Assembly (NCBI GenBank): GCA_031459625.1
Contig: JAVKIH010000008.1
Coordinates: 18,359 to 82,358 of the forward strand
DNA: 64,000 bases
From: Candidatus Geohabitans tengchongensis
Lineage (GTDB): Bacteria > Sysuimicrobiota > Sysuimicrobiia > Sysuimicrobiales > Humicultoraceae
Reading direction: 5' to 3'
Made by a program: the position numbers and the translations under genes. How positions within the stretch are numbered: the stretch's first letter is position 1; every line of letters begins with the position of its first letter. Positions 6,018-64,000 of the stretch are shown here, piece after piece. The notes beneath the pieces were generated by a model, which worked only from the letters and a program-made list of their open reading frames with translations, had not been told where the DNA came from and made no database searches.

Positions 6018-6056
6018 GCGCCTGCCGCTCCACCGCCGGCGGCCTGATGGAGCCTC

Positions 6057-6596
6057 CTACCGCCACTTGATGGAGCAGCCTCGCGGCGGCGTCTCCGTGG
6101 TCTCGGGACGCCGGCCCGCCAGGACCGCCTCGAGGGCCTCGCGCAGGTAGTGGTGCCGGACCGCGGTGGGGTCCTCGACGTTGTCGTCCGGCGCGCCGTG
6201 GTAGACCAGCCGGCGCTCCCCGTCGAAGAGGAAGATCTCCGGCGTGCGGGTGGCCCCGTAGCGCCGGGCCACCTCCTGCGACTCGTCGTGCAGGTAGGGG
6301 AAGGGGTACCCCTTGGCCTCGGCGCGGGCGCGCATCTGGTCGAAGGAGTCCTCCGGGTACTTGGTGGCGTCGTTGCTGTTGATGAGGACGAAGCGCACGC
6401 CGCGGTCGGCGTACTCCCGCTGCAGGGCGATGATGCGGTCCTCCCAGGCGCGGACGTAGGGGCAGTGGTTGCACCAGAAGATGACCGCCAGCGCCCGGGC
6501 GTCGGCGAAGTCCTCCGGCCCGTAGGTCCGGCCGTCGGTGGCGGGCAGACGGAAGGGGATGAGGCGCTCATCGGTGGCGATGGCCATGGCGTTCAC
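6057..6596 (-). CDS. Thioredoxin-fold thiol-disulfide oxidoreductase (TlpA/AhpC-TSA-like)
   Basis: Active-site motif WCNHCPY, LINSND, RTPEIFLFD; typical of TlpA/ResA-like redoxins. Confidence 0.7.
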   Translation of the reverse strand: MNAMAIATDERLIPFRLPATDGRTYGPEDFADARALAVIFWCNHCPYVRAWEDRIIALQREYADRGVRFVLINSNDATKYPEDSFDQMRARAEAKGYPFPYLHDESQEVARRYGATRTPEIFLFDGERRLVYHGAPDDNVEDPTAVRHHYLREALEAVLAGRRPETTETPPRGCSIKWR

Positions 6597-7876: not shown

Positions 7877-9259
7877 CGCGGCGTGGCGTCGGCCCGACCC
7901 GCCCGCCCCCCGGCCCCGGGCGAGGAGGTGGTGGTGCGGGTCGACCGCCTCGCCTACGGCGGCGCCGGGGTGGGGCGGCTGGACGGCTTCGTTGTCTTCG
8001 TCGAGGGGGCCGCCCCCGAGGAGACCGTGCGTGCCCGCATCCGCCGCGTGCGCCGCCGCCACGCCGAGGCCGTGGTGGCGGCGGTGGAAGCGGCCTCCCC
8101 GGTGCGGGTCGAGCCGCGCTGCCCCCACGTCCGGGACGACTGCGGCGGGTGTCGCTGGCAGCACGTGGCCTATCCCGCCCAGGCGCAGGCCAAGGCGGCC
8201 ATCGTGCGCGAGTCGCTGGCCCACCTGGGCGGCTTCGGCGACGTCCCCCTGGCGCCGATCCTCACCCCGCCCGAGCCCTGGTACTACCGCAACAAGATGG
8301 AGTTCAGCTTCCATCCGGACGGCGTCCTCGGCCTCCACCGGCACGGGGCCTGGGACCGCATCGTCGCCCTGCAGACCTGCTTCCTCCAGTCCCCGCGCGC
8401 CGTCGCCCTGGTGCACGCCGCCCGGGCCTTCGCGCTGGAGCACGGGCTGAGCCTGTACGACCCGCGCACGCGTCAGGGGTTCCTGCGCCGGCTGGTGGTC
8501 CGGGAGGGGCGGCAGACCGGGGAGACCATGGTGGTGCTGGTCACGCGCAGCGGCCCCTTCCCGCAGGCGCAGGCCTTCGCCGAGCGGATGGCGGTCACGG
8601 ACCCCAGCGTCGTCAGCGTCGTGCGGGGGACGAGCGACGCCCCCTCCGACGGCGCCCCCCTCGAGGCGGTAGAAGTCCTGCACGGCCGCGAGGCCATCGC
8701 CGAACGGGTGGGGGAGCTCACCTTCCGCATCGGTCCGGAGACCTTCTTTCAGACCAGCACGTGGGGGGCGGAGCGGCTCACCGAGCTGGTCCTGCGCTTC
8801 GCCGAGCCGGCGCGGGGCGGCCTGGTCTTCGACCTGTACTGCGGGGTGGGCACCTTCACGCTGGCGCTGGCGCGCCTGGCCCGGCACGCGGCGGGGGTGG
8901 AGGTGGCCGCCGCGGCGGTGGCGGCGGCCCGCCAGAACGCGGCCCACAACGGCATCGGCAACGCCACCTTCCACGCCGGGGACGTGCGCCTGGTCCTGCC
9001 GGCCCTGCTGGAGCAGTTCGGCACGCCCCAGGTCATCGTGCTCGACCCCCCGCGGGCGGGGGCCGGCGCCAGGGTGATGCGCAAGATCGGCCGGGCAGGA
9101 GCGTCGCGCGTTGTCTACGTCTCCTGCAACCCCACCACGCTCGCCCCCGACCTGCGGGAACTGGCCGCCTTCGGCTACCGCATCGCCGCCGTCCAGCCGG
9201 TCGACCTCTTCCCGCAGACCTACCACGTGGAGACGGTCGTCGCCCTCGACCGCACCTGA
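7877..9259 (+). CDS. 23S rRNA (uracil-C5)-methyltransferase, RumA/RlmD family (TRAM + Fe-S + SAM methyltransferase)
   Basis: TRAM-like N-terminus EEVVVRVDRLAYGGAGVGRLDGFVVFVEG, Cys cluster CPHVRDDCGGCRWQH, SAM motif VFDLYCGVGTFTLALA, and catalytic ...VVYVSCNPTTLAPDL. Start is ambiguous (GTG 7877 or GTG 7928-7934 after GAGGAGG). Confidence 0.8.
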   Translation, partial: RGVASARPARPPAPGEEVVVRVDRLAYGGAGVGRLDGFVVFVEGAAPEETVRARIRRVRRRHAEAVVAAVEAASPVRVEPRCPHVRDDCGGCRWQHVAYPAQAQAKAAIVRESLAHLGGFGDVPLAPILTPPEPWYYRNKMEFSFHPDGVLGLHRHGAWDRIVALQTCFLQSPRAVALVHAARAFALEHGLSLYDPRTRQGFLRRLVVREGRQTGETMVVLVTRSGPFPQAQAFAERMAVTDPSVVSVVRGTSDAPSDGAPLEAVEVLHGREAIAERVGELTFRIGPETFFQTSTWGAERLTELVLRFAEPARGGLVFDLYCGVGTFTLALARLARHAAGVEVAAAAVAAARQNAAHNGIGNATFHAGDVRLVLPALLEQFGTPQVIVLDPPRAGAGARVMRKIGRAGASRVVYVSCNPTTLAPDLRELAAFGYRIAAVQPVDLFPQTYHVETVVALDRT

Positions 9260-28343: not shown

Positions 28344-28418
28344 GGGCGCTTAGCTCAGAGGTAGAGCGCCTCTCTGACGCAGAGGAGGTCGGAGGTTCAA
28401 GTCCTCCAGCGCCCACCA
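28344..28418 (+). tRNA. tRNA-Val (anticodon GAC)
   Basis: Hand-folded cloverleaf: acceptor GGGCGCT/AGCGCCC, D arm GCTC-AGAGGTA-GAGC, anticodon arm CCTCT-CTGACGC-AGAGG (U33, anticodon GAC), variable loop AGGTC, T arm GGAGG-TTCAAGT-CCTCC, discriminator A, encoded CCA. 75 nt. Confidence 0.9.
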
Positions 28419-58287: not shown

Positions 58288-58743
58288 ATGCGCTTCGTCA
58301 CCGTGCTCGGTGTGGTCGGCCTGCTGCTCCTGGGGCTGGCCGGCGTGGGCTATCCGGAATACAACTACCAGCAGCAGACCCCCGCCGCGCCTGCCGCGGG
58401 GGTGAAGCAGCAGATCCAGACGGCGGCCACCCACTCCGGGTTCGCCGCCGGCGGGCAGTCGCTGGCCTACGTGCAGCAGCACCTGGGCCATGCCCTCAAC
58501 TGCATCGAGGGCAAGGGCGGGCGGAACTTCAACGCGGCCTGGGGGCACGTCTGCGAGGGGCAGGGGAACGGCATCCTCAACGACCTCCGGGGGGTCTCCG
58601 GCGGTGCGGCCGTGCGCCCGCTGGTGGAGCACGCCGACGGCCTGGCTGTCACCGGGGTCAAGACCCGCGACCTGGCCACGGCGCGGGCCGCAGCGGCGGG
58701 CGTCAGCGCTCTGCTCAAGGTGGCCGCGGAGTACCTGAAGTAA
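58288..58743 (+). CDS. Hypothetical secreted protein (151 aa, two Cys)
   Basis: MRFVTVLGVVGLLLLGLAGVG signal/anchor; mature part Gln/Ala/Gly-rich with CIEGKGGRNFNAAWGHVCEGQGNG. No family recognisable. Convergent overlap with the nucleotidyltransferase gene. Confidence 0.4.
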   Translation: MRFVTVLGVVGLLLLGLAGVGYPEYNYQQQTPAAPAAGVKQQIQTAATHSGFAAGGQSLAYVQQHLGHALNCIEGKGGRNFNAAWGHVCEGQGNGILNDLRGVSGGAAVRPLVEHADGLAVTGVKTRDLATARAAAAGVSALLKVAAEYLK

Positions 58744-59827
58744 CGGCCCCCCACAGCCGACGGAGCCAGCGGCGGCGTCCTGCGGCGAGCGGCTGGGGGA
58801 TCCACACCAGCCGGCCCACCCACCGCAGGAAGTCCGCAGGGGCCTCTCCTCCCAGCCACCGCAGGAGCCCCACCTGCACGATAGCGCTGAGGGCAGCCTC
58901 CTCCCGCAGGAGGCGGGCCTGCAGGCGGGCGGTCAGGCGGCGCGCCAGATAGGGCCACCGTCCCCCCTCCAGCACCGCCAGGGCCTCTGCCGGCACCGGT
59001 GCGCCGAACAGGTCGGCCGCCAGCGCCACCGCCACCTGGACGGTGCGGCGCGCCTCCACGCAGACGGCACCGGCGAAGGTCCAGTCCACGCCGCCGCGCG
59101 CCGCCACTTCGGCGATGTCGCGGATGTAGCGGGCGCGGGGGCGGCCGTACCACAGCTCGCGCATCCAGAAGACGGCCAGCCCCACGATCAGGTCGGCGGG
59201 CGCGGGGAGGAGGGCCTGGGCGCCGGCCACGTCTACCGGTCTCGCCCGGCAGGCCACGGCGTCGTGGTCGAGCGGCAGGAGGTGCGGGTAGCCGGCATAG
59301 CGCCAGTGCAGGTCCACCGGCAGGGTCAGGCCTGACGGCGGCATGTACCCGCGGGCGCTACGCCAAGTGCGGTCGGCCGCGCTGGGGGCTCCGCCGGCGA
59401 TGCGGTAGCCCAGCGCGCAGAGCGCCCGGTGCGCGGCGTTGACCGTCTCCGGGGCGACGAGGAGGTCCAGGTCGTGCATGGGGCGCAGCGCGGGATCGGG
59501 GTAGGTTGCCCGCGCCAGCGCCGCGCCCTTCAGCAGGAGCGGGCGGACCCCTTCACGGTTCAGGGCCGAGAGCACCGCGGCCAGCTCCATCTCCACCCGG
59601 ACCGCCCGCTGCGCGGCCCGCTCGGACGCGGAGGCCAGCTCGCGCGCCACCGGCCCGGGCACGGTCACCCCGGCCCGCCGGATGCCGTCCCAGAGCAGCG
59701 GGATGACCTGTTCCCGCCTCGCCAGGCGATGCACGGCGTCCCAGTCGGTGGGGAGGTCCGGCGGGAGGGGCTCGAGGTGCAGCAGCCGGAGGAAGGTCCG
59801 CTCGAACGGGTAGAGGCGCGGCGGCAT
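58715..59827 (-). CDS. Nucleotidyltransferase family protein (PF14907-like, as found in kinase-containing lasso-peptide-type clusters)
   Basis: MPPRLYPFERTFLRLLHLEP...LLKGAALARATYPDPALRPMHDLDLLVAPETVNAAHRALCALGY; the hG..R...DLDLLV nucleotidyltransferase core and ~370-aa size match the 'uncharacterised nucleotidyltransferase' family. Confidence 0.6.
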   Translation of the reverse strand: MPPRLYPFERTFLRLLHLEPLPPDLPTDWDAVHRLARREQVIPLLWDGIRRAGVTVPGPVARELASASERAAQRAVRVEMELAAVLSALNREGVRPLLLKGAALARATYPDPALRPMHDLDLLVAPETVNAAHRALCALGYRIAGGAPSAADRTWRSARGYMPPSGLTLPVDLHWRYAGYPHLLPLDHDAVACRARPVDVAGAQALLPAPADLIVGLAVFWMRELWYGRPRARYIRDIAEVAARGGVDWTFAGAVCVEARRTVQVAVALAADLFGAPVPAEALAVLEGGRWPYLARRLTARLQARLLREEAALSAIVQVGLLRWLGGEAPADFLRWVGRLVWIPQPLAAGRRRWLRRLWGAVTSGTPRPP

Positions 59828-59856
59828 CAGGGCCGGACGCGGCCACGGCGCCGTGC

Positions 59857-60663
59857 TCAATAGGCGCTGAGCGTGCCGGACCGCCGGGCCTCCGCAAAGC
59901 TCCAGTGCAGGGCGAGCAAGCCCAGCGGGACGAGCGCGGCGGCAAAGGCGGCCAGGACGAGCACCTCGCCGCGCAGGCCGGCCGCCCCTGTCCCCTCCAG
60001 CAGGACGAGCCGCATGGCGCGCAGCGCGTGGGTCATCGGCAGCCACTCCCCCAGCCGCTGCAGGGGTGCCGGGAGGACGGTGGTGGGATAGAAGAGGCCG
60101 CCCACCAACGCCGAGGCGGCGGCGATCGGCGCGGTCAGCGGATCGGGCTGGCGGGTGAGGAGGACGTAGGCTGCGGCGAGCCAGCCCACGGCCAGGAAGG
60201 TCGCCCCCGAGAGCCCCAGGACCACGAGGGCGGCGGCCAGGTTGGCTCGAGCGATCGGCAGGCCGAAGAAGACCTCCCCCACCCACAGGGAGAGGGCCGC
60301 CTGCCCGAGGCCCAGCAGGACCGGCCACAGCGACAGGCCCAGCGCCAGCGTCCCCACTGCACAGGGCGTGGCGGCCAGGCTCTCCAGCGTGCCGGCCACC
60401 TGCTCCTGGCGCAGCGCGGCCGGGCAGGCGCGCATCACCGCGGTGAGGAAGCCGAAGAAGGCCACGCCGACGAGCGCGAAGGCGAAGTAGCCCGCCGGGC
60501 GCCCCGATGCCGGATCCGGTGCGGGGACCAGGCGTCCCAGGTAGTAGAGGGTGGCGGCGGTGAACCCCACGCCCGCGGCCTGCCAGGCCGGCGCCAGGCG
60601 CGCCGTCCCCGCGGCGATGCTGTCACGCCGGAGAAACGCCCACAACTGGAAGAGCAGGGCCAC
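59857..60663 (-). CDS. ABC-2 type transporter permease (exporter membrane subunit)
   Basis: 268-aa 6-TM ABC-2 permease starting VALLFQLWAFLRRDS (GTG) inside ORF 59857..61053. Downstream of, and overlapping, its ATPase partner. Confidence 0.75.
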   Translation of the reverse strand: MALLFQLWAFLRRDSIAAGTARLAPAWQAAGVGFTAATLYYLGRLVPAPDPASGRPAGYFAFALVGVAFFGFLTAVMRACPAALRQEQVAGTLESLAATPCAVGTLALGLSLWPVLLGLGQAALSLWVGEVFFGLPIARANLAAALVVLGLSGATFLAVGWLAAAYVLLTRQPDPLTAPIAAASALVGGLFYPTTVLPAPLQRLGEWLPMTHALRAMRLVLLEGTGAAGLRGEVLVLAAFAAALVPLGLLALHWSFAEARRSGTLSAY

Positions 60664-61408
60664 GCGTCTCCTCCACGGCCGCCTCGTAGCACGCCCGCAC
60701 GCGCGCCGCTCCACCCTCCCCGACGGCCACCACCTCGCGCAGGCGCCCGCCTGCGAGGATGCCCACACGGTCGCACACGCCGGCCGCCTCCTCGAAGTCG
60801 TGCGTCGCCAGCAGAACGGTGCGGCCCTCTGTGCTGGCCAGGTGGCGTACCAGCGCCCGGAAGGCGTCAGCCGCCTGGGGGTCGAGGCTGCGCGTCGGCT
60901 CGTCGAGGCAGAGGACGGGCTGGCCGCCCACGAGCGCCCGGGCGAGCAGGAGCCGCTGGCGCATCCCCGTCGAGTACCGGGCCACGACCTGGTCGGCCGC
61001 CTCGGTGAGTCCCACCTGCCCGAGCGCCGCTTCGGCCCGCCGGCGCGCTTCACCCGGCGCGCAGCCGAGCAGGCCCGCGAAGAAGATCAGGTTGTCCCGC
61101 CCGGAGAGCCGCCAGTAACAGGCGCGCTCGTCCCCCGTGACCAGCGCCACGCGCCGCCGCACCAGCGTCGGCTCCCGCACCACGTCCGCGCCCAGGATGC
61201 GGGCCGTGCCGCCGGACGGGAGGAGGAGGGTGGTCAGGATCTTGAGCAGAGTGGTCTTGCCGGCGCCGTTCGGACCCAGCAGGCCGAAGATCTCTCCCGC
61301 CTCGACCTGCAGGGTCACGTCCCACAGGGCGTCCACCGGGCGATGGGCCCCGAGCGGCCAGCGCCCGCGGAAGCGCTTGGTCAGGGAGGAGGTCTCGACC
61401 GCCGCCAC
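60623..61408 (-). CDS. ABC transporter ATP-binding protein (exporter)
   Basis: Walker A GPNGAGKTT, Q-loop, signature YSTGMRQRLLLARAL, Walker B LCLDEPTRSLD, H-loop LATHD. Start taken at GTG (VAAVETSSLTKRF); further in-frame GTGs lie upstream within a tandem repeat. Confidence 0.8.
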   Translation of the reverse strand: MAAVETSSLTKRFRGRWPLGAHRPVDALWDVTLQVEAGEIFGLLGPNGAGKTTLLKILTTLLLPSGGTARILGADVVREPTLVRRRVALVTGDERACYWRLSGRDNLIFFAGLLGCAPGEARRRAEAALGQVGLTEAADQVVARYSTGMRQRLLLARALVGGQPVLCLDEPTRSLDPQAADAFRALVRHLASTEGRTVLLATHDFEEAAGVCDRVGILAGGRLREVVAVGEGGAARVRACYEAAVEETRGPALPVVGVSPA

Positions 61409-61473
61409 GACCCATTCAGTACCGGGGAGGACCGGAGACTTCCTGTCTACGGTGCGTGCCGTCGGCCGCCGCT

Positions 61474-61560
61474 GTTCCCCGCCGGTCTTGCGCCCTCGGG
61501 CCGCCACCGTTCCCGCGCCGGTCTTGCGCGCCCTCGGCCGCCACCACCCTCGGCCGCCAC
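61474..61560. repeat. Tandem direct repeat (~36 bp x 2.4) in the 5' region of the exporter ATPase gene
   Basis: gttccccgccggtcttgcgccctcgggccgccacc / gttcccgcgccggtcttgcgcgccctcggccgccacc / accctcggccgccac. On the coding strand each unit supplies an in-frame GTG-GCG-GCC (VAA) codon run. Confidence 0.45.
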
Positions 61561-61666
61561 GGCTCCTGTGTCGTTTGCACGATGGTACTCCTGCATTCGA
61601 CGGATAGGCGGTGCGTGCTGCCGTCCATACACTGGAAAGGCGCCAGGAACACCCAGGGGGTCATCA

Positions 61667-62311
61667 ATGTGGTGGCGAGGGGGGATTCGCTCGGCAAGCA
61701 TCCCACTCGCGGGAGGGGTCGAGTCGATCTCTCCTCGCGTCCCTCCACCGCCACCACCTCCACCGCCAGCACCGCCCCCCGGCGGCGGGCCTCCCGGCGC
61801 CATCCTGATCCCCCTCATCCCGCTGATCCTGCTGATCATCGGCGCTCCACCGGTGGTGGAGCAGCCACCTCCGCCGGTGGTCCAGGTCACCCCGACGCCT
61901 CCCCCTGAGGCCGCCCCGACACCGTCACCCGCGGCCGAAGCGCCCCCGTCGCCTCCTCCGCCTTCCCCGGCGCCGACTCCAGGTGTCCTCCCGCCCACCG
62001 TGGCGCCCACAGCGCCGCCGGCGCCGCCCGCTGCCGCTGTGACGCCCGGCCCGCCCGCGCGCCCCCGGCCCACGCCGATCGTCCTCGGCCCCCCCGCACC
62101 GGCGCCCGCACCTGCCGCGCCTGCACCGCCTGCTCCTGCGGCTGCAGCGCCGCCACCGGTCCGGGCGGTGGCCACGCCACCCCCCGCCGCCCCGCCGCCC
62201 GGGGCGGTGCTTCCCTTCGGAGGCGCCCGCCTGTGGATCCCGGTGGCGCTGGGCCTGGGCCTGGTGGGCACGGGGTACCTCCTCCTCCGCCGGAACGCCA
62301 GGGCGGGGTGA
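61667..62311 (+). CDS. Pro/Ser/Thr-rich membrane protein with C-terminal sorting-signal-like tail
   Basis: MWWRGG..., poly-Pro tract, TM (AILIPLIPLILLIIGA), ~120-aa Pro/Ala/Thr/Ser-rich extended region, then ...GAVLPFGGARLWIPVALGLGLVGTGYLLLRRNARAG (motif, hydrophobic segment, basic tail). Stop overlaps the sortase GTG (GTGA). Confidence 0.5.
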   Translation: MWWRGGIRSASIPLAGGVESISPRVPPPPPPPPPAPPPGGGPPGAILIPLIPLILLIIGAPPVVEQPPPPVVQVTPTPPPEAAPTPSPAAEAPPSPPPPSPAPTPGVLPPTVAPTAPPAPPAAAVTPGPPARPRPTPIVLGPPAPAPAPAAPAPPAPAAAAPPPVRAVATPPPAAPPPGAVLPFGGARLWIPVALGLGLVGTGYLLLRRNARAG

Positions 62312-62937
62312 GCGCCCTGCGGACGCTGGGTCTTGTCCTGATGGTGGTGGGCGGGCTGCTACTGGCGGCACCCGCCTTCTGGTCGGTCTACACGGGGCGG
62401 GGGGCCGAAGCGGCGCAGACCGCGGCCCTGGCCGAGTGGGAGCGCGCCCTGACCGACGGCCAGACGGTAGCGGAGGAACGGACGACCCAGGTGGATCGCA
62501 GGGCGGCTGCCGGCACCCTGCGCCCGGCCGAAGGGCTCGTCCTCACCATCCCGCGTCTGGGGTTGCGCCGCTTCGTCCCAGAAGGGGCCCGGCCCGAACA
62601 CCTGCGCCGCTTCGGCCTGGGACGCATCTCCTGGACGGCCCGGCCCGGCCAGGCCGGTGTGGTCGGCATCGCCGGTCACCGCACCACGCATGGGGCGCCC
62701 TTCTTCCGCCTGCCCGCCCTGCGGCCCGGCGACGAGGTGCTGCTCGAGGACGGGCGGCAGCGCTATCTCTACCGCGTGGCGGAGCAGCGCACCGTCCGCC
62801 CGACCGCGGTGGAGGTCCTGCGCGGTGAGGCCGGCCGCCGTCGCCTCGCCCTGGTCACCTGTACCCCGGCCTACAGCGCCGCCTACCGCCTCGTGGTGCT
62901 GGCCGACCTGCAGCGCGTCCAGGTGGCGGCCCCGTGA
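62308..62937 (+). CDS. Sortase (class E-like transpeptidase)
   Basis: N-terminal TM anchor, catalytic His (VVGIAGHRTTHGAPFFRL), and active-site Cys in LALVTCTP (TLxTC motif). Confidence 0.8.
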   Translation: MSALRTLGLVLMVVGGLLLAAPAFWSVYTGRGAEAAQTAALAEWERALTDGQTVAEERTTQVDRRAAAGTLRPAEGLVLTIPRLGLRRFVPEGARPEHLRRFGLGRISWTARPGQAGVVGIAGHRTTHGAPFFRLPALRPGDEVLLEDGRQRYLYRVAEQRTVRPTAVEVLRGEAGRRRLALVTCTPAYSAAYRLVVLADLQRVQVAAP

Positions 62938-62947
62938 CCGCGGTCGC

Positions 62948-63280
62948 GTGACTGGCCCCGTGACCGGCGGTCCCGTAACCGCTCCGTCCAGTGCGCCGGG
63001 CGACTCGGGCCCCAGGCTGGCCGCCCGCTTTGCCACGGAGGCCGCCCGCTTTGCCGCGGAAGTCGTCCTCTTCGACCCGGAAGACGGCCGGCTGGTCGTC
63101 CTCTCGGGCGCTGCCGCCAGCGTCTGGACCGCGTGCGACGGCCGGGCCACCGACGAGGTGGCCCGGGCGGCGGGCCTGGGGGTGGGCCGCGTGCGCCGGA
63201 TCCTGCGCGACCTCGAGCGCGCAGGTGCCGTGGCCCGCGAGGGCGCAGGGTGGCGCCGGCGGGTGTGCGTGGAGGTCTGA
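62948..63280 (+). CDS. PqqD-family protein (RiPP recognition element-type peptide-binding chaperone)
   Basis: EVVLFDPEDGRLVVLSGAAASVWTACDGRATDEVARAAGLGVGRVRRILRDLERAGAV is a textbook PqqD/RRE domain. ~35-aa Gly/Pro/Thr-rich N-terminal extension; GTG start (62948 or 62960) just after the sortase stop. Confidence 0.7.
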   Translation: MTGPVTGGPVTAPSSAPGDSGPRLAARFATEAARFAAEVVLFDPEDGRLVVLSGAAASVWTACDGRATDEVARAAGLGVGRVRRILRDLERAGAVAREGAGWRRRVCVEV

Positions 63281-63282
63281 GC

Positions 63283-64000
63283 GTGAGCGCGCATGCGGGC
63301 CTGCGTGTGGCGCAGCACGAGGCCCGGGGCTCCGAGGGCGAGCGGGAGGGCGTGGCCGCTCTTTCGGGCGCGCCCGGTCTTGCGGGCGCGCCTGCGGAGG
63401 CCGGGTCTCGCAGCGGGTGGCGCAAAACCGGCTGGACCGTACGGGTGCACGCGGCGCCGGGCTCACCGCAGGGCTTGAGGGGAGCCCGGCTGCAGACACT
63501 GCTCGCCGCGCTGGACCTCTGCGGGCTCCGCCTGCCTGCCCTCGAGGTGGAGCTGGGCGCTGACGGGTGGGCCGTCGGCCGCGTCGGGGGAGAGGCCCTG
63601 TGGCGCATCCGCCTGCCGGAGACGCGAGCGCTCTCGGTGCTGCTCGGGCAGTGCACCGCCACCGCCCTCCACTTGGCCGACCGTCTCTTCCTGCACGCCG
63701 GCGTGGTGGCGGTGCGCGGACGGGCGGTGGTGCTGGCCGGCCCGAGCGGGGCGGGGAAGACCAGCCTGGTGGCCGCGCTGCTGGCGCAGGGGGCGACCTA
63801 CCTCTCCGACGAGGTGGCCTGGCTCCCCCTGCCGGACAGTGTGCCGACCAGTGTGCAGGTGCCGGACGGCGTGCGGGCGCCGGACCGTGTACAGAGCCGG
63901 CACGACGGTGGCCCGTTCAAGGGAGCGCCGTGCGCCTTCCCCTTCGCCCTGCCGCTCGCCATCAAACCGTGGACGTTGCGCGCTCTCGGGACCCTGCCCT
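63283..64000 (+). CDS. HprK-related P-loop Ser kinase (3' partial; continues beyond window end)
   Basis: Hand translation of + frame from GTG 63283 is stop-free to the window edge and contains LFLHAGVVAVRGRAVVLAGPSGAGKTSLVAALLAQGATYLSDEVAW. This is the HPr kinase/phosphorylase C-terminal P-loop domain, as in the HprK-like kinases of lasso-peptide-type clusters. It is not in the ORF track because no stop lies in the window. Confidence 0.6.
   Translation, partial: MSAHAGLRVAQHEARGSEGEREGVAALSGAPGLAGAPAEAGSRSGWRKTGWTVRVHAAPGSPQGLRGARLQTLLAALDLCGLRLPALEVELGADGWAVGRVGGEALWRIRLPETRALSVLLGQCTATALHLADRLFLHAGVVAVRGRAVVLAGPSGAGKTSLVAALLAQGATYLSDEVAWLPLPDSVPTSVQVPDGVRAPDRVQSRHDGGPFKGAPCAFPFALPLAIKPWTLRALGTLP

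Follow-up and report, generated by a model that had tools for sequence, protein, structure and literature searches.

What do a peptide-binding protein of the PqqD family and an apparently HprK-like kinase act upon when they are encoded beside a sortase? This question is raised by positions 58,288 to 64,000 of the window, by which we mean the whole 64,000-nucleotide stretch of Candidatus Geohabitans tengchongensis DNA analysed here (guanine plus cytosine content ~74%). We found that the conserved part of this island is a four-gene core encoding a proline-rich protein with an LPXTG-type sorting signal, a sortase, a PqqD-family RiPP recognition element (RRE; RiPP, a peptide made by the ribosome and modified after translation) protein and a P-loop kinase. 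We regard it as an even chance that the core phosphorylates a leader-like motif at the N-terminus of the proline-rich protein and anchors the product to the cell wall, with an ABC-2 exporter and a nucleotidyltransferase encoded alongside in accessory roles.

Conservation and extent of the four-gene core

Eight genes lie between rsmE and the window edge, as judged from a listing of open reading frames (ORFs), a frame analysis of G+C at third codon positions and inspection of start codons. Four of them form the rightward operon:

61667-62311, plus strand: proline-rich protein, 214 residues, 34% proline, no lysine
62308-62937, plus strand: sortase, 209 residues, with an N-terminal membrane anchor (PF04203, E=3e-28, 98.6 bits against a threshold of 26.6)
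62960-63280, plus strand: PqqD-family RRE protein, ~86-106 residues, with its start at 62948 or 62960
63283-64000, plus strand: P-loop kinase, the part inside the window; the full protein has 341 residues and stops 306 nucleotides past the window

Because a word-indexed search for homologues of the kinase gave only 4 proteins, a profile search was needed. Run against 1.84 billion representatives, it returned 22,023 proteins at E<=1e-3, among them a tight subfamily that shares the motifs YLSDEVALLD, KPWT and RQPSSF. Scans of GTDB genomes and JGI metagenomes recovered 17 genome and 80 metagenome loci; for this subfamily the yield was 11 loci from genomes and about 41 from metagenomes, whose hosts are metagenome-assembled genomes (MAGs) labelled Bacillota, Armatimonadetes CSP1-3, Armatimonadota or 'bacterium'. 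When the gene set of the window was sought in these relatives, the sortase, PqqD and kinase genes were contiguous wherever a locus reached far enough upstream, and their identity with the window proteins was 38-60% (tBLASTn). The loci were collapsed to 39 kinase clusters at 90% identity, and the partner genes were counted over those clusters with enough flanking DNA:

PqqD gene next to the kinase gene: 34 of 34 clusters
Sortase gene next to the PqqD-kinase pair: 27 of 27 clusters
Proline-rich ORF with sorting signal, upstream of the sortase: 20 of 20 clusters
ABC ATPase: 12 of 15 clusters
ABC-2 permease: 11 of 14 clusters
Nucleotidyltransferase: 5 of 11 clusters

The ABC pair is missing and the core is kept at loci L015, L021, L051, L052 and L055. 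The flanks vary too, with rsmE and argC in the window lineage and genes for a CAP-domain protein and an amidase in others. Because the flanking genes differ between lineages, we conclude that the four-gene core is retained whatever its context. A preliminary description of this DNA had seen the conserved unit in PqqD, kinase, nucleotidyltransferase and exporter, with the sortase and proline-rich genes merely sitting between the modules. The counts turn this around, as the latter two are the invariant partners of PqqD and kinase, and the nucleotidyltransferase and exporter are often absent.

The same description held that the system very probably continues beyond the window, which cuts the kinase gene. 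A Logan contig (L001), located via the exact nucleotidyltransferase sequence, agrees with the window at 100% identity for 5,446 nucleotides and runs 1,190 nucleotides further. On it the kinase terminates at 341 residues and argC starts 145 bp later, with one promoter-like and one terminator-like site between the two genes. The 94%-identical relative L004, a 64-kb contig, carries the same eight genes between murJ-hrcA-dnaJ-prmA-rsmE on one side and argCJBD-argG-argR on the other, and the Pfam list for 21 kb of it contains no lasso cyclase, B2 protease, second kinase or small precursor, with only housekeeping genes outside the island. Because argC follows the kinase in L001 and housekeeping genes flank the island in L004, no second kinase, precursor or modifying enzymes lie downstream; a continuation past the window edge is ruled out by these two contigs, and the island is complete and self-contained.

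The proline-rich protein and its sortase

The proline-rich protein matches no Pfam or NCBIfam family. ENA calls show no gene across its region, and automatic calls on the identical Logan contigs place a 274-residue glycine-rich ORF on the opposite strand (61447-62271, minus strand). The proline-rich sense ORF and the glycine-rich antisense ORF share third codon positions, so that a codon-position test is useless for choosing the strand. A gene on the plus strand is supported by its ribosome-binding site (GGGGG, 6 nucleotides ahead of the ATG and kept in the 93-94% identical relatives), by the 4-nucleotide overlap of its stop with the sortase start, by protein termini that are conserved in all loci and by in-frame fusions with the sortase described below. 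The real gene is thus the proline-rich ORF of the plus strand, not the antisense glycine-rich ORF.

From N- to C-terminus the protein consists of an N-terminal motif, a stretch of poly-proline that is also rich in glycine, a proline-containing hydrophobic helix, a proline-rich spacer, the sequence LP[FY][GTA]G..LW, a hydrophobic stretch and a basic tail. This architecture is constant across orthologues, in which the spacer measures 100-150 residues. In the window the elements that matter here are the following:

61685-61735, plus strand: N-terminal leader-like motif IRSASIPLAGGVESISP, found from an alignment of 18 N-termini and motif scans
61730-61732, plus strand: codon of Ser22, the only invariant residue inside the motif among the 18 N-termini
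61796-61858, plus strand: first hydrophobic segment GAILIPLIPLILLIIGAPPVV, conserved in all orthologues
62210-62308, plus strand: C-terminal sorting signal, comprising LPFGG (62210-62224), a hydrophobic stretch (62231-62287) and the basic tail RRNARAG (62288-62308)

The family consensus of the N-terminal motif is [RK]IAxIP[LIF]xxG[VI]xx[LIFV]SP. In the alignment, which includes short paralogues, Ser22 is followed by proline in at least 90% of the 18 sequences, and the second invariant position is a proline of the poly-proline tract after the motif. We propose Ser22 as the phospho-acceptor by analogy with the linear polyphosphorylated peptide (LPP) kinase LppK, which acts on Ser3 just past the leader (PMC13381572), and with PsmK and PadeK (PMC6993621, PMC8498205). 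The first hydrophobic segment is a predicted membrane anchor of N-in orientation.

Short paralogues of ~90-107 residues were observed at L014 (~750-1040), L019 (~8070-8390), L060 (~6050-6350) and L020 (~453-770), in each case adjoining the long substrate gene, just upstream of it. They consist of the N-terminal motif, a glycine-rich stretch and one hydrophobic helix, without proline-rich spacer or sorting signal, and their motif ends in Ser-Pro in 3 of 4 cases and in Ser-Gly in L014. By analogy, a constant 'leader' joined to variable bodies, namely the long protein and the short paralogues, is a pattern like that of RiPP and LPP precursors. No other candidate was found: a scan for the motif over all loci and the whole window picked up just the proline-rich gene, plus the short paralogues in these 4 loci, and a search for a hidden small precursor, made where the PqqD and kinase genes meet and between the divergent operons, returned only arginine-rich off-frame ORFs. 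The preliminary description was right that the window contains no lasso cyclase, protease or short precursor, and the gap that it marked as 'no obvious precursor' would be filled by the proline-rich protein with its conserved leader-like N-terminus. The spacer itself contains a mid-spacer motif, (R)xTPIV[LI] (62072-62086 in the window), which is also present in L010, L013 and L019 and reads TTIVL in L020.

At its other end the protein carries an LPXTG-type sorting signal, in which LPFGG is followed by LWIPVALGLGLVGTGYLLL and RRNARAG and for which a dedicated sortase is encoded in the adjacent gene; cleavage is predicted. The combination of LP[FY][GTA]G..LW, a transmembrane stretch and a basic tail was found at 31 loci. 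Many lineages have LPFGG or LPYGG as the motif, others LPFTG or LPYTG, always with x-x-LW after it. Judged by their sequence, the C-terminal elements appear to be a canonical sortase sorting signal, save for the frequent glycine at the threonine position.

Substrate and sortase are fused in frame in 4 independent clusters:

L014, 1206-2387: substrate-sortase fusion ORF
L020, ~970-2178: substrate-sortase fusion ORF
L022, ~1290-2471: substrate-sortase fusion ORF
L029 and L053, from 3858 and from 752: substrate-sortase fusion ORFs of one cluster

In the fused ORFs the order is N-terminal motif, first transmembrane helix, spacer, LPxGG, second transmembrane helix, short basic loop, sortase anchor and sortase domain. 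Because this topology is consistent only with such an orientation, the N-terminal motif is predicted to be cytoplasmic, on the same side as the RRE and the kinase.

The sortase has the expected catalytic residues, with His in GHRTT (62674-62688 block), Cys in TCTP (62857-62868) and Arg in YRLVV (62884-62898 block). Class E is the best-scoring class for the window sortase, and its closest solved structures are the class E enzymes 5go6 and 5cuw. The cut-off of the class E model (NF033747, 160 bits) is not reached by the sortase of the window (114 bits) or of L013 (99 bits). We describe the sortase as class E-like.

The RRE, the kinase and the accessory operon

The PqqD protein of the window scores 28.7 bits against the PF05402 threshold of 23.4, over profile positions 1-38 of 67, and the orthologue of L013 falls just under that threshold at 21.4 bits. 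A profile built from 12 PqqD orthologues has as its top PDB match the lasso RRE TbiB1 (5v1u, E=6e-4), and the match covers the leader-binding beta-strands.

Three motifs mark the kinase within the window:

63691-63702, plus strand: LHAG, with the histidine
63739-63765, plus strand: Walker A, GPSGAGKTS
63799-63813, plus strand: YLSDE

Against HprK_rel_A (TIGR04352) the window kinase gives E=1e-12 and 46 bits, and the kinases tested score 46-65 bits against a cut-off of 200. Against PF07475 (cut-off 33.3) it reaches 18-19 bits, truncated or at full length, and the tested kinases 17.4-23.6; the match is restricted to the segment with the histidine, P-loop and acidic motifs. When the kinase profile was compared with PDB, HprK/P 1jb1 was matched at E=2e-3 with LHAG, GPSGAGKTS and YLSDE aligned. 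An AlphaFold2 (AF2) model of the kinase reached a predicted local distance difference test score (pLDDT) of 75.9, and Foldseek matched it to PEPCK and HprK/P at probability 1.0 and E values of 3e-5 to 3e-3. As modelled, the kinase is of the HprK/PEPCK fold and appears HprK-like, outside every curated family. Because its first ~48 residues are disordered, the true start may lie downstream of 63283. A 37-residue insertion after YLSDE (PLPDSVPTSVQVPDGVRAPDRVQSRHDGGPFKGAPCA, 63826-63936) occurs in the window lineage only and is disordered in the model.

The five genes flagged in the preliminary description are all present where it had placed them (ORF and hidden Markov model scans), and its family calls of PqqD/RRE, HprK-like kinase, PF14907 and ABC-2 exporter were right. 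PF14907, PF05402, PF01061 and PF00005 all pass their thresholds, whereas the kinase stays below the cut-offs of PF07475 and HprK_rel_A, with a fold model that matches PEPCK and HprK/P.

The leftward operon diverges from the core and ends with the nucleotidyltransferase:

60623-61408, minus strand: ABC ATPase, DrrA-like, 261 residues (PF00005, E=6e-30), first gene of the leftward operon
59857-60663, minus strand: ABC-2 permease, 268 residues (PF01061, 38.9 bits against 26.9)
58715-59827, minus strand: PF14907 (NTP_transf_5) nucleotidyltransferase, 370 residues (E=5e-44, 151.1 bits against 31.2, profile positions 3-249 of 249)
61409-61666, no strand assigned: divergent intergenic region, delimited from sequence, direct repeats and alignment with L004 and L066

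The best NCBIfam match of the ATPase is TIGR01188 drrA, at 217 bits against a cut-off of 312. Its gene overlaps that of the permease by 41 nucleotides, and the permease is found at 48-62% identity in L012, L013, L017, L029, L033, L043 and L060, among others. The nucleotidyltransferase carries an hDLDLLV catalytic-type motif (59456-59476; MHDLDLLV, residues 117-124), and sequence searches found for it neither an NCBIfam model nor a relative of solved structure in PDB. With its patchy distribution, the ABC-2 pair together with the nucleotidyltransferase is an accessory module. The pair could export a released product or be functionally coupled to the nucleotidyltransferase. At L019 (7522-7815) only the C-terminal third of the permease is detectable, with no ATPase and an intact nucleotidyltransferase, which looks like exporter decay in one lineage.

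At the outer edge of the cassette, most other lineages encode a secreted CAP/SCP-domain protein (PF00188; L013, 4228-4803, and L017, L019, L021, L029, L043, L051 and L055-L060), which lies directly upstream of the proline-rich gene where the ABC genes are missing. The window lineage has an unrelated secreted protein at this position:

58288-58743, plus strand: secreted protein, 151 residues, overlapping the 3' end of the nucleotidyltransferase gene by 29 nucleotides

It was rejected as part of the cassette, having no family match and being conserved in the window lineage only.

Within the divergent intergenic region, ~110 nucleotides upstream of the start of the proline-rich gene are nearly identical in the 93-94% relatives L004 and L066. 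Imperfect direct repeats occupy 61450-61560, for example CC(C/G)CGCCGGTCTTGCGC twice, 36 nucleotides apart, and about the same interval (~61450-61560) is a hot spot of insertion and deletion, L004 lacking ~40 and L066 ~110 nucleotides. A promoter scan of the island found no sigma-70 consensus, such a scan being uninformative at 74% G+C. An Rfam scan of the 64-kb window gave a single match at gathering score, a tRNA gene (28344-28415, plus strand).

Proposed mechanism, alternatives and related systems

In the mechanism that we propose, the RRE would bind the N-terminal motif (IAxIPLxxGVxx-SP) on the predicted cytoplasmic side of the first membrane helix and hand it to the kinase, which would phosphorylate Ser22, possibly more than once. 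The nucleotidyltransferase, where present, might then decorate the phosphate, say by adding hexose in the manner of PsmN. The proline-rich spacer would be extracytoplasmic, and the sortase would cut at LP[FY][GT]G and join the C-terminus to the cell wall. The product would be an envelope protein that is wall-anchored, membrane-tethered and N-terminally phosphorylated. The more specific statement, that an RRE-guided HprK-like kinase has been recruited to the cytoplasmic N-tail of a sortase-anchored, proline-rich membrane-to-wall protein which in some lineages is fused to the sortase, we put forward tentatively, at somewhat short of an even chance. Mere synteny is an unlikely explanation because the sortase accompanies the RRE and kinase in 27 of 27 clusters across changing flanks, because the genes are tightly spaced or overlapping and because the substrate has a leader-like motif.

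Several observations weigh against this mechanism. The single-sequence AF2 model of the RRE, whose fold should be a three-stranded sheet plus a winged helix, shows the order beta-beta-beta-alpha-alpha but is too poor to use (pLDDT 47). The kinase passes none of the curated cut-offs of the HprK family models, and its Foldseek template-modelling scores are low (0.2-0.45). Canonical lasso/LPP leaders have an aromatic residue in their [Y/W]xxP motif, which the N-terminal motif lacks, and at the other end glycine often replaces threonine in the sorting motif (LPFGG, LPYGG), whose cleavage is predicted. A model in which the product remains on the cell does not account for the ABC-2 exporter. Every member stems from an uncultured MAG or a metagenome and, because most loci are from related uncultured lineages, some of the synteny may reflect descent and not selection.

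This last point is also the starting point of the alternative that survives best, which we consider unlikely. It states that two modules are syntenic but independent, one made of the sortase and its substrate and the other of PqqD and kinase (with or without nucleotidyltransferase and ABC genes), the latter acting elsewhere, on an unrecognised small peptide, a polysaccharide or a lipid-linked intermediate, or else with the kinase as a regulator. That the loci stem from few uncultured lineages and that a CAP-domain protein and an amidase are likewise syntenic in one sub-lineage agrees with it, as does an ABC-2 type typical of glycopolymer or drug export. Cassettes of PqqD, HprK and nucleotidyltransferase also occur in exopolysaccharide loci, and LPP and paeninodin clusters lie near capsule loci. 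The example among our loci is a distant cassette, L023 (2778-9011), from a Desulfobacterales MAG. Its genes encode a PqqD protein, a kinase that resembles HprK_rel_A (135 bits), a protein of the radical SAM/SPASM type and one similar to PF14907, and they are directly followed by those for an XrtA/PEP-CTERM-type polysaccharide chain-length determinant and a tyrosine autokinase; this suggests a wider association of the PqqD/kinase/PF14907 trio with envelope and sorting systems. Against independent modules stands the arrangement of the four genes, which remain contiguous and overlapping or nearly abutting while the flanks change and the ABC and nucleotidyltransferase genes come and go. The proline-rich protein and its short paralogues, moreover, share a leader-like N-terminus with an invariant serine, and no other conserved small ORF was found.

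A second alternative takes its cue from the LPP clusters that Popov et al. described in Bacillota (Nat Commun 2026, PMC13381572), in which LppK polyphosphorylates Ser3 directly past the leader; these and the paeninodin-type lasso clusters are the nearest known systems to the cassette. We compared LppK, LppB, LppN, PsmK and PsmN with the window proteins by published description. The window has the family content of LPP clusters, namely a discrete PqqD-type RRE, an HprK-like kinase, NTP_transf_5 (found in just 5 of 11 related clusters), an ABC exporter and a peptidase bound to the membrane, with no macrolactam cyclase in either system; the Pfam names of the LPP families, including NTP_transf_5, are confirmed in the supplement of that paper, whose domain tables do not include a sortase. 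Substrates of 35-200 residues, a conserved N-terminal region with an invariant proline ahead of variable C-termini, and a cell-envelope context are further likenesses, as is a kinase target serine a few residues past the leader motif, which is here our proposal. On this analogy the N-terminal motif would be a true leader, and a RiPP-like peptide, once phosphorylated and perhaps glycosylated, would be freed by a protease or by the sortase in a processing or ligating role and secreted via the ABC-2 exporter. The LPP leader is indeed removed by a signal-peptidase-like enzyme, the short paralogues in L014, L019, L020 and L060 have the motif without a sorting signal, and most loci have the ABC operon beside the core in divergent orientation.

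We nonetheless judge such a secreted product to be distinctly improbable. The ABC pair is absent from the core-bearing loci named above, and the catalytic domain of the sortase is extracytoplasmic, unlike the RRE and kinase, which are in the cytoplasm. The sorting signal lies at the far C-terminus, not at a leader junction, and the hydrophobic segment past the motif has no consistent signal-peptidase site, with proline at +1/+2 in many orthologues. The island also differs from LPP clusters in other respects. There is no SipW-like signal peptidase I to remove a leader, and here a sortase would act instead on a C-terminal LPXTG-type signal; the LPP exporter is MsbA-like, whereas here it is a split ABC-2 type; and the LPP leader reads YxxPxVLxHQxIxFETxxS, compared with IAxIPLxxGVxxxSP here. 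The substrate is a two-helix, proline-rich, predicted wall-anchored membrane protein, nucleotidyltransferase and exporter are dispensable in many loci, and the host lineages are uncultured and high in GC, their MAGs bearing the labels CSP1-3, Armatimonadota or Bacillota.

The likeness to kinase-containing lasso clusters of the paeninodin type, to which the preliminary description had pointed, is apt in that the same trio of PqqD, HprK-like kinase and NTP_transf_5 recurs (PMC8498205, PMC6993621, PMC13381572). In paeninodin-type clusters an HprK homologue phosphorylates a serine of the precursor (PMC8498205), and in pseudomycoidin biosynthesis PsmK phosphorylates serine before PsmN, an 'uncharacterised NTP transferase', adds one or two hexoses to the phosphate (PMC6993621). 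A PqqD-like B1 RRE, a kinase resembling HprK, an NTP transferase and an ABC exporter are common to these systems and ours, and the closest solved structure to the RRE is the lasso B1 protein TbiB1. Lasso systems differ in having an Asn-synthetase-like macrolactam cyclase (C), a transglutaminase-like B2 cysteine protease and a short precursor whose leader contains YxxP, all of which are missing here, and their acceptor serine is C-terminal in that precursor, whereas the acceptor that we propose is N-terminal.

The same description had also matched the island to the HprK-related-kinase/PqqD/nucleotidyltransferase cassette; membership of the NCBIfam HPr-rel-A system (TIGR04352/TIGR04353) fails on the scores. 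The likeness to this system and to SynChlorMet-type cassettes is that HprK_rel_A is the best curated model for the kinase, that PqqD lies directly upstream of the kinase and that PF14907 is often nearby, as in L023. The kinases, however, score 46-65 bits against 200, the PqqD proteins have no match to TIGR04353 (PqqD_rel_X), and HPr-rel-A/SynChlorMet cassettes contain radical SAM/SPASM genes and have XrtA-type exopolysaccharide genes, not sortases, as neighbours. We give hardly any credence to the idea that we see one piece of a RiPP cluster of lasso or HPr-rel-A type, whose precursor, cyclase, protease or second kinase lie past the window edge, with the sortase and proline-rich genes as unrelated inserts: its PqqD, HprK-like, PF14907 and ABC set is typical of paeninodin-type clusters and the top NCBIfam match of its kinase is HprK_rel_A, but it is excluded by the extended contigs, with argC directly after the kinase and only housekeeping genes around the island over 21 kb of L004, and by the failed membership tests, with HprK_rel_A scores about a quarter of the cut-off, and it is further contradicted by the lack of any recurrent cyclase or protease family in the related loci and by the constancy of the sortase (27 of 27) and proline-rich gene (20 of 20) as partners.

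As to the sortase, known class E enzymes (5cuw, 5go5, 5go6; from Actinobacteria, with LAxTG/LPXTG substrates) share with it the His/Cys/Arg residues and the N-terminal anchor, and their substrates share the order of motif, hydrophobic stretch and basic tail. It differs from them in its score, 114 bits under the cut-off of 160, in a motif LP[FY][GT]G that often has glycine at the threonine position, in sharing an operon with an RRE and a kinase and in being sometimes fused to its own substrate. Full-text searches of the literature turned up no paper that connects a sortase to an RRE and a kinase of the HprK-like kind. Returning to the wall-anchoring mechanism proposed above, the cassette of sortase, proline-rich protein, RRE and kinase looks like an undescribed relative of the lasso-peptide phosphorylation machinery that is aimed at a surface protein.

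The interest of the cassette is that the RRE/kinase/PF14907 trio would gain from it a defined substrate and a role in the envelope. Lasso and LPP systems with this trio sit in capsule or exopolysaccharide loci; here its logic is tied to a sortase and to a concrete substrate with one invariant serine, two membrane helices and a wall-sorting signal, a context that points to envelope building over an antibiotic role. If the proposal is right, RRE-dependent modification would extend from peptides to a bona fide surface protein, and RiPP-type leader recognition would for the first time be seen to operate on a protein sorted to the cell wall, such systems being known so far only from small secreted RiPPs. 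The natural substrate-sortase fusions and the unusual LP[FY]GG motif would be of interest to sortase engineering, and a gene that automatic callers miss or place on the wrong strand would be annotated in poorly known uncultured bacteria. In these organisms, intracellular phosphorylation or phosphoglycosylation would be linked to a covalent tether to the wall outside.

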